Assembly: GCF_963921235.1 (NCBI RefSeq) | Contig: NC_086097.1 | Location: 76,262,001-76,326,000 of the forward strand | Length of the DNA stretch: 64,000 bases | From: Mobula hypostoma | Lineage: Eukaryota | Direction of reading: 5' to 3' | In this document: positions 47,753 to 55,066 of the stretch, one piece after another | How positions within the stretch are numbered: position 1 is the first letter of the stretch | How the letters are laid out: the number at the start of each line of letters is the position of its first letter | Made by a program: the position numbers and the translations under genes | Notes under the pieces: generated by a model | What the model was told of the DNA's origin: nothing | Database searches by the model: none | What the model saw: the letters and a program-made list of their open reading frames with translations, nothing else

Positions 47753-50700
47753 CTCTTTTCTGTGGCTGTACCCCCTGGTCCTAGACTCACCAACTAGAGG
47801 AAACATCCTCTCCACATCTACTCTATCTAGGACTTTCAATATTCAATAGGTCTCAATGGGAGCCCTCCTCATTTGTCTAAACTCCAGCTGCTACAGACCC
47901 AGAGCCATCAAACATTCCTCCTATGTTAACCCTTTCATTCCCAGAATCATTCTCATGAACCACCCTCTGGACCCTCTCCAATACTAGCACATCCTTTCTT
48001 AGAAAAGAGGTCCAAATCTGCTCACAATACTCCAAGTGTGGGCTGACCAATGCCTTATAAAGCCTCAGCATTACATTCTTGCTCTTGTATTCTTGTCCTC
48101 AAAATTAATGCTAACCTTGCATTTGCTTTCCTTACTAGCGACTCAACCTGCAAATTAACCTTTGGGGAATCTCCTACACAAGGACTCCCAAGTCCCTTTG
48201 TATCGCTGATTTTAGAATTTTCACTCAGTTTGGAAAATAATCTACACCTTTATTACTTCTACCAAACTGCATGACCATACACTTTCTTACACTATATTCC
48301 ACCTGCCCATTCTTTGCCCATTCTCCCAATCTGTCTAAGTTCTTCTGCTGACTCTCTGCTTCCTCAACACTACTTGCTCCTCCACCTACCTTTGTATCAC
48401 CTGCAAATCTGGCCACAAAGCCATCAGTTCTGTTATCCAAATCGGTGACATATAATGTGAAAAGAAGCAGTCCCAACACTGACCTCTGTGGATTACTACT
48501 GTCACTGTCAGCCAAACAGAATATGCCCCCTTTATTTTCACACTTTGTCTCCTGCCAGTCAGGCAATCTTCTATCCATGCTAGTATCTTTCCTGTAATAC
48601 CATGGGCTCTTATCTTTCTAAGCAGCCTCATGTACAGCACCTTATCAAAGGCCTTCTGAAAATCCAAGTAACAATATTCACTGACTCTCCTTTGTCAATC
48701 CTGCTTGTTATTTCCTCAAAGGAATCCAACAGGTTTGTCAGGCAAGATTTCCTCTGAAGGAAACCATGCTGACTTTGGCCTGCTTTATTGTGTGCCTCCA
48801 AGTATTCTGAAGGTAAGGGTTCCCATACCCTAAGCTCCCTAATCATTATCATCCTAAATATTGAATTCCAATATTAGCCCAACCAATGAAGTCAGGCTAA
48901 CTGGCCTGTAATTTCCTTTCTTCTACCTCCCTCCCTTCTTGAAGAGTGGAGTGACACTTGCACTTTTACAGTTCTCAGGAACCGTTCCAGAATCTAGGGA
49001 TTCTTTAAAAATCATTATTACTACTTTCAGAAACCTGAGTTATAGTCCATGCGGTCCAGCTGATTTATCTTCCTTCAGAGCTTTCAGCTTCCCAAGCAGC
49101 TTCTCCTTTGTAATAGCAACTACAGTCACTTGTGCCCCCGACAGTCTCGAATTTCTGGCATACTGCTAGTGTCTTTCAAATGAAGACATTCGCAAAATAC
49201 TTATTAGGTTTGTCTGCCATTTCTTTGTCCCCCATTACTATTACTCCAGTGTCTTTTTCCAGCAGTTCCATATCCACTCTCATCTCTTTTACTCTTTATG
49301 TATCTGAAAAAAAAACTTTTGGTACCTTTTTTATATATTATTGGCCAGTTTACCTTCATATTTCATCTTTTCCCTCCTTATGGATTTTTAATTGCCTTCA
49401 GTTGGTTTTAAGAGTTTTCCAGTCCTCTAACTTCCTACTAATTTTTGCTATATGATATGCCCTCTCTTTTGCTCTTATGCTGTCTTTGACTGTACTTATC
49501 CGCTACAGTGCCACATCCTCCCTTTAGAATACTTCATCTTTGGGATGTATGTATCTTGTGCCTTCTGAATTGCCTGCAAAAACTCCAGGCTTTGCTGTTC
49601 TGCCATTATCCCTGCTAGTGTTCCCTTCCAATCAACTTTGGCCAGCTCCTCTCTCATGCCTCTGCATTACTCCATTGTAATACTGATATATCTAACTTTA
49701 TCTTCTCCCTCTCAAATACCAGGGTGAATTCCATCATATTATGAGCACTGTCTTCAAAGGGTTCCCATACCTTAAACTCCTTAATCAAATCTGGTTCATA
49801 ATACAATACCCAATCCCGAAATGCCTTTCTGCTAGTGAGGCTCAACCACAAACTGCTCTAAAAAGCCATCTCATGGGCATTCTACAAATTTCCTCTCTTT
49901 GGATTCAGCACCAAACTACCTGCCTTTTGAAATCCCCCTTAACTATTATAACATTGCCCTTTTTACATGTTATTTGTCCCCCATTGTAATTTATATCTGA
50001 CATTCTGGCTACTGTTCAGACACCTGTATAATACTCCCATCAGGGTCTTTTTACTCTTGCAGTTTCTTAACTCACAACTTTCTATGGATTTGATCTCATT
50101 TTGGCCCATACAGCCACCTCCACCCCCACCTACCTGCCTCTCCTTTTGGTACGATGTATAAGAAAATACAAAACTCCAAACTATGATCTTCTTTCAGTGA
50201 TACCCACAACGTCATACCTACCAATCTCTAGCTGTGCTACAAGATCACCTATCTTATTCTACACACTGCGTGCATTCAAATATACCACCTTCAGTCCTGT
50301 ATTCATTATTATTTTCAAGTTTGCTCCCATGTTACACTTTAACTCATCCCACTGACAGCAATTTTGCCTTTTCATCTGCCTGTCTTTCGTCACAGTCTTA
50401 CTACACAATGCATTGACTCGTTGCATTGACTCGTATTCCAACTATCCTATCGTCAGCCTTATCACTCTGGTTCCTATCCTGCTGCCAAATTAGTTTAAAT
50501 CTTTCCCAACAGCTCTAGCAAACCTGCTCAAAAGGATATTGCCCCCCCACACTCCCACCCCCCGGTTCAAGTGTAACTAGTCCTTCTTGAATAGGTTATA
50601 CCTTCCCTAGAAGACATCCCAATGAGATAGGAATCTGAAACACTGCCCCTTGCATCAATTCCTCAGTCCCTCATTCACCTGTACTATCATCCTATTTCTG

Positions 50701-53801: not shown

Positions 53802-53891
53802 CTAATTTTCCCTGGACTGGCAAAGTCAATCAGAATTCATTCACAATGCTGCTGCTAGAGTCCTTACTAAGACCAAGGATGTAGAACATAT
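53802..53891 (+). repeat. Left copy of a 90-bp direct repeat (putative long TSD)
   Basis: Matches 54493-54582 at 88/90 positions. Confidence 0.95.
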
Positions 53892-54492
53892 CAGCCAATA
53901 CCTGCCAAAAGAACATCTGCAGGCATTCTGACCTCTGCAAGGGACTGGCAGCTGTTGGTGGACCTCGAAGGGCAGCTGAAGTTCCCCAACCATATCGCAG
54001 CCACCACCAGACATTGTCCTAGTGTTTGAGTCTACTAAGCAAGTGGTGCTGCTGGAGCTGACAGTCCCATGGGAAGATAGCTTGGAGGAGGCCTTTGAAA
54101 GGAAGCTCTCCAAGTACACAGGACTAGTCAGCAACTGTCAGCAGGCTGGATGGAGAGCGAGGTGTCTCCCAGTGGAGGTTGGTTGTAGGGGATTCATAGC
54201 CCGTTCTTTAGTTAGAGCCTTCAGCATTTTGGGCATCGAGGGAGAGAGGAAGAGGAGAGCCATCCGCAGTACCACCGATGCGACAGAAAGGGCCTCAAGA
54301 TGGCTGTGGCTCAAAGGAGGGGAGCCATGGAGTCATAATTAGCTAGCCATCTGGACACAAGCTGGGGTCTGATCAGCCCCGGTTGGGTCACCTGGAGGAG
54401 GTTGTATGATGTTGAAAGACCTGAAACACCCGATGATTCCAGGAACATCACTGAAGATGTGTCCAGAAGCATCAATAGATGTATGTACACAG
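53892..54492 (+). mobile_element. 5'-truncated HERO-type (R2-superfamily) non-LTR retrotransposon: RLE domain and structured 3' UTR
   Basis: 'WQLLVDL..QLKFP.HI', then 'PDIVLV..STKQVVLLELTVPWED..EEAFERKLSKY..L...C...GW.....PVEVGCRGF', a PD-(D/E)xK restriction-like endonuclease. Stop at 54340-54342. Confidence 0.88.
54350..54467 (+). ncRNA. Candidate non-circularly permuted hammerhead ribozyme with kink-turn
   Basis: Core CTGAAGA 54451-54457, GAAA 54423-54426, GTA 54404-54406. Stem I TGATGTT/AACATCA; stem II GGGTC/GACCT; stem III GGTTGT/ACACCC. Closing helix TCTGGACACA/TGTGTCCAGA. K-turn at 54391-54401 / 54430-54443. Confidence 0.65.
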
Positions 54493-54582
54493 CTAATTTT
54501 CCCTGGACGGGCAAAGTCAATCAGAATTCATTCAGAATGCTGCTGCTAGAGTCCTTACTAAGACCAAGGATGTAGAACATAT
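54493..54582 (+). repeat. Right copy of the 90-bp direct repeat
   Basis: See 53802-53891. Confidence 0.95.
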
Positions 54583-55066
54583 TACCAGTTCTCAGATTGC
54601 CACATTGGCTTTCTGTCCATCATTGTCTTTAAAATATTACTACTGGCTTATAAAGAGCTGAATGGTCCAGGGCCTAAATACATCTCTGATCTCTTGCCGC
54701 ATTATGAACCTTCCTGAGCTCTCGGGTCATCTGGGAGCGGGTCTGCTTACCGTCCCCAGGGTCAAAACTAAACATGGTGAAGCAGCTTTTGGTTACAATG
54801 CTCCACATATCTGGAATAACCTTCCAGATGACCTAAAGTCTAACCCAACTTTCAGCTCTTTTAAATCAAGGATTAAAACTTCTCTTTCTGCTGTAGCTTT
54901 TAATTAGAATCCCCTGCACTGTAACTTCCATTTATCATATCTACTTCTTGTGTGATTTTATTCTGTTGTATATTGTCTGAATTTAGTTGTTTGATTTTTA
55001 TATTTTCTTCTTTGGACTGCCTTGTATTTAAAAAGTGCTATGCAAATAAACTTGCTTGCTTGCTTG
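54525..55066 (+). mobile_element. L2-clade LINE 3' fragment (the target of the HERO insertion)
   Basis: 'IQNAAARVLTKTK..EHIT', 'HWL', 'FKILLL.YK.LNG', 'VPRVKTKHGEAAFGYNAPHIWNNLP'. Tail aataaa(cttg)n. Confidence 0.88.

Follow-up and report, generated by a model that had tools for sequence, protein, structure and literature searches.

A hammerhead-fold domain opened between A9 and G10.1 in the 3' untranslated region of a HERO-like LINE

We analysed a 64,000-nucleotide (nt) stretch of Mobula hypostoma DNA (NC_086097.1; hereafter the window, whose positions are used throughout) and found, at 54350-54467 in the 3' untranslated region (UTR) of a HERO-like long interspersed nuclear element (LINE), a domain that sequence comparison identifies with high confidence as a conserved hammerhead fold. 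The hammerhead core has its chain opened between A9 and G10.1, where a gapless four-way junction makes the connection; the study that defined hammerhead permutations took it that such an interruption does not occur (PMC10085705). Taken as a whole, the domain is probably the hammerhead-type catalytic domain of the HERO-like 3' UTR, which is the reading we favour, and we consider it likely that intact versions cleave themselves after H17; one 3' UTR transcript is predicted to yield two products, of 64 and 86 nt. It would be, as far as the literature searched extends, the first hammerhead-type ribozyme found in the 3' UTR of an autonomous, endonuclease-bearing LINE, in contrast to the hepatitis delta virus (HDV)-like ribozyme at the 5' end of R2. 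The domain is abundant, its exact site sequence being present in at least 1,708 element copies within the 3.48-Gb genome of the same species, and it is old, with relatives reaching down to ~30% protein identity. A large unannotated hammerhead population may therefore sit in animal genomes, and the class split at A9/G10.1 escapes any search descriptor in which the CUGANGA block is left undivided.

The domain is made of the following parts (pairs are written by window position, core nucleotides by hammerhead numbering).

54350..54359, +: 5' strand of helix P1, TCTGGACACA; closes the domain, 10/10 pairs with 54458-54467
54360..54384, +: P2 hairpin of 9 base pairs (bp), with the palindromic tip CUGAUCAG (54369-54376); lies between P1 and GGGUC
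54385..54389, +: stem II strand 10.1-10.5, GGGUC; pairs with 54418-54422
54391..54397, +: 5' strand of helix Px; pairs with 54437-54443 and links the far ends of stems I and II
54398..54399, +: GA of the internal loop between Px and stem III; faces NNUGA at 54432-54436
54400..54405, +: stem III strand 16.6-16.1, GGUUGU; 5/6 pairs with ACACCC at 54426-54431, with the mismatch U54402.C54429
54406, +: H17, here A, in GUA at 54404-54406; predicted scissile bond 54406/54407
54407..54413, +: stem I strand 1.1-1.7, TGATGTT; 7/7 pairs with 54444-54450
54414..54417, +: linker GAAA, connecting the distal end of stem I straight to stem II; 0-8 nt in relatives
54418..54422, +: stem II strand 11.5-11.1, GACCU (GACCC in the family); the closing pair is G.U in this copy
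54423..54426, +: G12, A13 and A14 with A15.1 (GAAA); conserved as core columns
54426..54431, +: stem III strand 15.1-15.6; supported by pairing and covariation
54432..54436, +: GAUGA, a 3-nt bulge plus GA; faces GA at 54398-54399
54437..54443, +: 3' strand of Px; supported by covariation
54444..54450, +: stem I strand 2.7-2.1, AACATCA; directly 5' of CTGAAGA
54451..54457, +: C3 U4 G5 A6 N7 G8 A9, here CUGAAGA; near-invariant columns
54458..54467, +: 3' strand of P1, TGTGTCCAGA; abuts A9 with no spacer

The letters, coordinates and pairings that a first-pass annotation of the window had assigned to hammerhead elements are all present in the sequence exactly. From 5' to 3' the strands run P1a, P2, IIa, Pxa, GA, IIIb, UH, Ia, linker, IIb, GAAA, IIIa, NNUGA, Pxb, Ib, CUGANGA and P1b. 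Stems I and II are tethered as in a hammerhead, by the linker between strands Ia and IIb and, on their other sides, by helix Px; the linker measures 0-8 nt, mostly 2-5 nt, in 36 parsed sequences. P1, P2, stem II and the G.A-paired core helix meet in a gapless four-way junction, with zero unpaired bases at all three of its joints in 26 of 34 parsed relatives, and stem II can stack on the G.A pairs across this perfect junction. Nested folding gives a minimum free energy structure that contains P1, P2 and Px, with z-scores of -1.8 on either strand; stems I and II are invisible to a nested folder.

Two further parts of the domain have recognisable patterns of their own. At the internal loop between Px and stem III, the GA columns at 54398-54399 hold A in 49 and G in 34 of the 55 sequences compared below, and on the opposite (NNUGA) side G is held in 46 and A in 44. 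This loop fits the kink-turn pattern in most lineages and the pattern is absent in two sub-lineages, so that the loop appears kink-turn-like. In 39 of the 55 sequences, against an expectation of 8.0, the apex of P2 reads as a perfect palindrome 6 nt or longer, and at least eight different palindromes occur among the relatives, including UGGCCA, UUGGCCAA, UGUACA, UCAUGA, GACGUC and CCUAGG. Such varied palindromes suggest loop-loop dimerisation of the RNA.

Conservation and covariation of the domain

Relatives were collected through the encoded protein. Its last 334 residues were put into an alignment with eight proteins from fish, amphioxus and metagenomes, and a scan of a metagenome collection then gave 80 loci encoding C-termini 30-88% identical to the query. 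The DNA 3' of the open reading frames (ORFs) of these relatives has the same arrangement with different helix sequences. Our descriptor of the arrangement asked for exact CUGANGA, GAAA and UH and for three stems with a minimum of 4 pairs each; one mismatch was allowed in stem I and one in stem III, none in stem II. This descriptor matched the coding strand in 36 of the 80 related loci, 34 of the matches also having P1 and P2, and the reverse strand in 0 of 80 (196,002 bases). Block-shuffled sequence of 1,960,020 bases contained 3 core matches, 1 of them also with P1 and P2, and 587,976 bases of loci from the M. hypostoma genome outside the family UTR contained matches at 2 distinct places. Within the window the sole match on the + strand lies at 54406; one minimal match on the - strand, at 50535, with stems of 4, 4-5 and 4 pairs, is taken as chance background.

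A covariance model was built on the nested helices P1, P2, Px and III only, stems I and II being excluded to lessen selection bias. Run over the 80 loci and the window (260,002 bases, both strands), the model returned 55 matches, 54 in the loci plus the window, all on the coding strand. Of the 53 loci whose sequence continues for at least 200 nt downstream, 46 have the domain of ~120 nt just 3' of the ORF, and the 7 loci that lack it have the lowest protein identities, 33-39%.

The best-conserved columns of the domain across these 55 sequences are those of the hammerhead core. On the CUGANGA side, C3 is kept in 52, U4 in 53, G5 and A6 in 54 each, G8 in 53 and A9 in 54; on the other side, G12 is kept in 47, A13 in 54, A14 and A15.1 in 52 each, and U16.1 in 54. 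The flanking columns are similarly retained (G16.2 in 55, C15.2 in 53, G10.1 in 53, C11.1 in 48). Position N7 is free, with U in 33, A in 15, C in 5 and G in 1, and H17 is U in 27, C in 16, A in 11 and G in 1. All twelve fixed core positions are intact in 40 of the 55 sequences.

The helices are retained through changes on both sides. In the 55-sequence alignment 91.0% of 2,166 cells are paired, as opposed to 62.9 +/- 0.7% after shuffling and 34-43% when the strands are slid; the covariation score is 0.653, against 0.189 for shuffled data, and 38 of the 44 pairs show both-sided changes. A separate MAFFT alignment of 31 parsed domains, in which GU, GAAAC and CUGA-GA are invariant, has 89.3% of the cells of the full pseudoknot paired (64.1% shuffled, 34-42% slid) and both-sided changes in 37 of the 44 pairs.

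Taken helix by helix over the 55 sequences, P1 has both-sided changes in 10/10 pairs and 93.2% of its cells paired, P2 has them in 9/9 pairs with 96.3% and 90.4% of the cells paired in its two helices, and Px in 6/7 pairs with 82.6% paired. The three hammerhead stems behave likewise. In stem I, 96.2% of cells are paired at the three core-proximal positions, each of which shows four pair types, and all 7/7 pairs of this stem change on both sides. Stem II is paired in 96.2% of cells and changes on both sides in 3/5 pairs, G-C, A-U and C-G alternating at 10.2-11.2; at 10.1-11.1, 46 sequences have G-C and 3 have G-U. Stem III is paired in 97.7% of cells, with both-sided changes in 3/6 pairs, U16.1-A15.1 in 50/53 and G16.2-C15.2 in 52/53 sequences. 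The 22 sequences outside the seed pair stem II in 99 of 107 cells and stem I in 110 of 138.

As expected of a hammerhead, the core is thus conserved, and stems I-III stand at their standard places with compensatory change. The first-pass annotation had proposed a non-circular permutation in which the upstream GGGTC forms stem II and the A9-G10.1 step is bridged by P1 and a hairpin, and each of these helices is now backed by compensatory changes in 54 divergent relatives. The check that it had named, covariation of stems I-III together with invariance of CUGANGA, GAAA and NUH, gave the same picture: the helices covary and the core is near-invariant across the relatives. Two other partners for stem II were considered and rejected. 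A local stem II, formed by U plus GUGUC after A9 with GACCC (4/5 pairs), occurs in this family only, competes with P1 and is lacking in the relatives; GGGUCU within P2 (54365-70), which could pair with AGACCU, is also missing in relatives.

Within the M. hypostoma genome itself, the 30 family copies that were compared are 95-98% alike, too similar for pairing tests, and show no covariation. Two protein searches of that genome with 50-60% identical fish proteins recovered only the same young family and no divergent lineage. The copies nevertheless define the family form of the domain. Eighteen of the 30 have C at 54422 and 12 have T, so the family form is CCCGAAA with a G10.1-C11.1 closing pair, and the G.U pair of the window results from CpG decay, as the first-pass annotation had surmised. 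Its suggested repair T54402G does not restore a family state, since T54402 is found in 30 of 30 copies and the stem III mismatch is therefore a family trait.

A similar route of loss is seen among the relatives. Fifteen of the 55 have a broken core; in 6 of these G12 has become A at the C11.1-G12 CpG, and in one the contig ends. Six of the 7 changes at G12 are G to A at the CpG. Loss of G12 at this CpG is, as judged from these substitutions, the decay route of dead genomic copies.

Strand order compared with known ribozymes and 3' UTR folds

The nearest known form is the type-SGC hammerhead. The hammerhead has been divided into the blocks S, G and C, and natural non-circular permutations, which the first-pass annotation had rightly given as reported, are described in the same work (PMC10085705). 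In type SGC, stems I and II are connected on one side by a linker of ~3 nt and on the other by a fourth helix, and the type is described there as cleaving at its predicted site, with the rate raised by over six orders of magnitude; the same scheme assumes that an interruption of the chain within block C (A9/G10.1) does not occur (PMC10085705). The HERO domain falls outside the six orders of S, G and C, because its block C is interrupted: P1b follows CUGANGA, and stem II takes its other strand from 66 nt upstream, beyond P2. At the A9-G10.1 step an additional base is tolerated in a viroid hammerhead. Aside from the break in block C, the order of the HERO domain is that of the SGC/GCS/CSG cycle. 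By its predicted pairing, then, the domain is a type-SGC hammerhead whose ends are joined by GA and whose chain is reopened between A9 and G10.1.

The likeness extends to details. Type-SGC hammerheads (the HRIMA-1 motif and its variants; Eckert, Friedrich, Weinberg and Weinberg, Nucleic Acids Research 2023, PMC10085705), as presented in the description of that type, share with the HERO domain the site, GAAA and CUGANGA blocks in this order, the short stem I-II linker, the fourth helix (Px in HERO), identical core nucleotides and a pseudoknotted core. They differ in that their stem II strand follows directly after A9 and their ends lie at stem III and the fourth helix, whereas the HERO domain is opened at A9/G10.1 and capped by P1 and P2 (PMC10085705). 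Under the definition of the type, the HERO domain is thus a circular permutation of type SGC and not a member of it. The host contexts also differ: type SGC is described from metatranscriptome RNAs, beside hairpin ribozymes, and the HERO domain sits in the 3' UTR of an animal LINE. The likeness is one of form and no proof of common descent.

Hammerheads occur in other eukaryotic retroelements too. Those of types I and III, in Penelope-like elements, retrozymes and satellite repeats, share with HERO the core, partial tandems and a ribozyme in the repeated terminal part (PMC4209133, PMC7229834); for Penelope-like variants, dimeric action is announced in the title of a work cited in PMC10085705. 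These types are nested three-way junctions that standard models find, whereas the HERO domain is pseudoknotted, split and missed by Rfam. Their hosts are Penelope-like or non-autonomous, whereas the HERO host is autonomous and has a restriction-like endonuclease (RLE).

Among RLE-type LINEs, the HDV-like ribozymes of R2 and other elements that lack long terminal repeats (non-LTR elements) are likewise self-cleaving ribozymes in the element RNA, as their summary description has it (PMC3774820), cleavage being predicted in the case of HERO. The HDV-like ribozyme is a nested double pseudoknot at the 5' end that cuts at its own 5' edge and frees the element from a co-transcript. The HERO domain, by contrast, lies at the 3' end, and its predicted cut falls 86 nt before the element end. 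The protein-binding fold of the R2 3' UTR is similar in another way: the 3' UTR that follows the ORF of this RLE LINE is likewise structured and pseudoknotted, and reverse transcription begins there (PMC10499050, PMC12222951). No hammerhead core is reported for the R2 fold, and protein binding by the HERO domain is presumed. A discontinuous hammerhead is known from mammalian Clec2 3' UTRs, with parts far apart in the chain, the ordinary strand order and a long loop insertion. Both it and the HERO domain are split and lie in a 3' UTR, and the Clec2 ribozyme is not known to have either a non-circular permutation or the A9/G10.1 break.

Full-text searches of the literature outside subscription journals and bioRxiv supplements returned no report of a hammerhead in HERO or in any RLE LINE, nor of one opened at A9/G10.1. 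An Rfam scan of the 64-kb window gave 0 matches at gathering thresholds. A permissive scan of 54200-54600 gave no hammerhead family up to E 10, but only SNORD78 (E 2.8) and a long non-coding RNA fragment. The missing hammerhead match is explained by the fact that nested models cannot represent the HERO strand order.

Predicted cleavage, role and rival explanations

If the domain is catalytic, the 2'-OH of A54406 would attack its own 3' phosphate, with G12 as the base and G8 as the acid as in other hammerheads, and the cut would leave A54406 with a 2',3'-cyclic phosphate and U54407 with a 5'-OH. The two products would be held together by 28 bp (10 in P1, 7 in Px, 5 in stem II and 6 in stem III), so that the cut should be reversible and not releasing.

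The position of the domain relative to the ORF bears on its possible role. The first in-frame stop lies within P1 or P2 in 32 of 48 relatives, and in the window it lies 8 nt before P1. Given this position of the stop, the domain could not be folded while a ribosome is terminating. In other lineages the ORF continues through P1a and P2 and ends in W-T-Q-(A/V)-G, so that the first helix strands are also coding. We tentatively suggest that the domain may act as a protein handle for target-primed reverse transcription and, at the same time, as a self-destruct device for uncaptured RNA, gated by translation termination. The element's own protein would grasp the hammerhead fold as the handle, and, because the ORF ends beside or inside P1 and P2, the terminating ribosome would keep the ribozyme unfolded. 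RNA captured by new protein would be copied intact. Uncaptured RNA (read-through transcripts, host co-transcripts, tandem multimers) would cut itself 86 nt before its end and lose the priming tail. For studies of template choice by HERO-type proteins the domain also provides a defined RNA handle, and such studies bear on the present attempts at DNA insertion with R2-like elements.

Several observations weigh against catalysis. The genome of the same species contains 1,708 seamless junctions across the predicted site, so the RNA that was reverse transcribed was intact there; one copy starts exactly at 54407, preceded by four unlike bases, and copies ending at 54406 number 0 in that genome. Template jumping of the reverse transcriptase (RT) across the nick, one of the ways in which the first-pass annotation had sought to reconcile cleavage with intact copies, leaves no genomic trace in these counts. 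The 22 public runs available consist of contigs, 21 of these runs being only guessed to be RNA; contigs from four runs, one of them a declared RNA library, bridge the predicted site on a tandem junction (L037 1143/1144); they imply that uncleaved RNA or DNA is present, and contigs are blind to RNA ends. The chain break at A9/G10.1 lacks a tested precedent, and conservation of these nucleotides could also come from a fold that binds protein and has no turnover. Finally, the 31 seed sequences were picked by a descriptor that demands pairing; the match rates, the controls on reverse strands and shuffled sequence, and the 22 sequences outside the seed address this selection bias without wholly removing it.

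Most of these points serve equally the main rival, namely that the domain is a catalytically silent, hammerhead-shaped scaffold whose pseudoknotted fold is kept for recognition by RT in target-primed reverse transcription, as R2 3' UTRs are, and whose core nucleotides serve shape and contacts with the protein instead of cutting. The seamless junctions with their single start and lack of ends at the site, the bridging contigs from an RNA library and the break without tested precedent all speak for such a scaffold, and the domain stands where RLE LINEs carry a protein-binding 3' UTR, that of R2 being described as pseudoknotted and protein-bound in the source's overview (PMC12222951). What speaks against silence is that the conservation is catalytic in its details: N7 is free, H17 is other than G in 54 of 55 sequences, and G10.1-C11.1 and C15.2-G16.2 are kept, while drifted copies break at exactly the core positions, mostly by CpG decay. 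Nor do the two exclude each other, since the explanation we prefer already includes protein recognition. We hold a wholly silent scaffold to be unlikely, if still worth serious attention.

Two further explanations fare much worse against the same data. The UTR might have captured a box C/D small nucleolar RNA (snoRNA)-like or kink-turn ribonucleoprotein element bound by an L7Ae-family protein, with AUGAUGU as box C, CUGA as D', GAUGA as C' and CUGA as D. SNORD78 at 54402-54458 is the only nearby Rfam match, and the GA/NNUGA loop is common among the relatives; that match, however, reaches 16 bits against a threshold of 38, and its E of 2.8 is at chance level. The supposed C box is a stem I strand that covaries freely (CUGGG, GUGGU, CCAGG, CAUGA), the supposed D box lies within the invariant CUGANGA, the spacer before D' is just 8 nt, and no terminal stem surrounds the supposed C and D boxes. 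The domain accordingly lies outside the box C/D class, and this lead, which we hold to be very improbable, was dropped because the would-be C box is a covarying strand of a helix. That short motifs came together by chance within a structured UTR, without shared ancestry of the hammerhead features, is an explanation that can draw on the shortness of the core motifs, the match at 50535 (-) and the 3 core matches per 1.96 Mb of block-shuffled sequence. It would have to account for 54 of 80 related loci having the arrangement at one and the same position, never on the reverse strand, with 38 of 44 pairs changing on both sides. The covariance-model matches, the core conservation and the covariation already refute it, and we give it practically no weight.

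The favoured reading of a catalytic hammerhead also has a more far-reaching variant, which concerns tandem copies. Eight of 14 full-length loci (L034, L037, L040, L041, L043, L044, L046, L047) are preceded by an abutting 3'-end fragment, with the junction CACAG/YTTACACCC. These upstream fragments measure 30, 45, 88 and 136 nt, with four more of at least 193 nt, and show no peak at 86. Partial tandems of the Tetraodon element Zebulon and of Penelope-like elements resemble the HERO-like full-length loci. Given these lengths and the intact junctions, nothing supports a routine formation of the next unit's 5' end by the upstream hammerhead, which would also not be heritable. A retrozyme-like cycle of autonomous HERO LINEs has been considered as well, in which the split hammerhead would cut read-through or tandem transcripts and re-seal them to unit length, possibly as circles or as dimers through the P2 palindrome. 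We think this doubtful, and decidedly so. If true, retrozyme-like templates would explain the abutting 3' fragments before full-length copies, and the hammerhead would serve thousands of LINE copies, in vertebrates and invertebrates, as a working device that reversibly nicks RNA and seals it again.

The host element and its genomic setting

The element that carries the domain, and its surroundings in the window, comprise the following features.

53892..54492, +: 5'-truncated copy of a HERO-like non-LTR retrotransposon, 601 bp, with the last ~150 ORF codons and the 3' UTR; based on copies that align to 54492 and on the endonuclease reading frame
53802..53891, +: left copy of the target-site duplication, 90 bp; a direct repeat exactly flanking the element
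54493..54582, +: right copy of the target-site duplication, 90 bp; a direct repeat, 98% identical to the left copy
54340..54342, +: ORF stop codon TAG, 8 nt 5' of P1
54469..54492, +: 3' tail, a small hairpin (54469-54482) followed by UAUGUACACAG, the element end; copies end at 54492

The frame closing at 54342 encodes the C-terminal endonuclease part of a LINE protein. A DNA search of the 3.48-Gb genome (200 contigs) for copies of the element gave 2,134 first-look candidates, and the 40 that were scored are 97-100% identical. The 3' end is sharply defined, 29 of 30 fetched genomic copies ending within one base of 54492 and one 3 nt short. Relatives have a hairpin followed by UGUAU and a short tail at the same place as 54469-54492 of the window.

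Full-length units in this genome are ~3.64 kb long, and at least one frame, of 1,166 codons, is open. They match RVT_1 with E 9.1e-17 and zf-RVT with 21-25 bits, under the cut-off of 27.5, and the C-terminal alignment retains PD..ELTVPWE..ERK, which, judged by eye, is the motif of a PD-(D/E)xK endonuclease. As in the HERO clade, there is a single ORF in which RT precedes a zinc knuckle (zf-RVT being below cut-off) and a PD-(D/E)xK endonuclease. The closest named proteins come from many teleosts and from Branchiostoma and are entered as 'uncharacterized' or 'reverse transcriptase'. The label HERO-like thus rests on domain content and on fish and amphioxus relatives.

Insertion of the element is not tied to one target sequence, as seen from the unrelated flanks of 30 copies. 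HERO is characterised as an RLE clade mostly without target specificity (PMC4640811). CT, mostly CTA, stands directly 3' of 18 of the 30 copies, which could reflect a target preference or one to three extra templated bases. The target duplications of these copies range from 90 bp in the window through 53 bp (L007) and 17 bp (L029) to none detectable; the staggered cuts of the HERO-like element vary widely. The copy in the window is nested in another interspersed repeat (53802-53891 and 54493-54700), which has a frame reading IHNAAARVLTKTKDVEHI.

Teleosts of distant orders (flatfish, conger, pipefish, herring, hake) have C-termini that are 77-84% identical, with E from 1e-167 to 1e-182, and words of a 667-nt stretch turn up in sequencing runs from ten organisms. 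These occurrences suggest either horizontal spread or unusual conservation.

At the other end of the element, an Rfam scan of the 5' UTR found no known ribozyme. This UTR of ~245 nt (L037:1230-1474) consists of repeated small hairpin units, CCAGGAAAGACUGG and then GUGAC, and such units recur in very distant lineages. Other lineages have a hairpin motif like that of the 5' UTR at most ~120 nt after the 3' UTR, in at least 6 of 45 loci (L064, L066, L068, L069, L075 and L081 among them).

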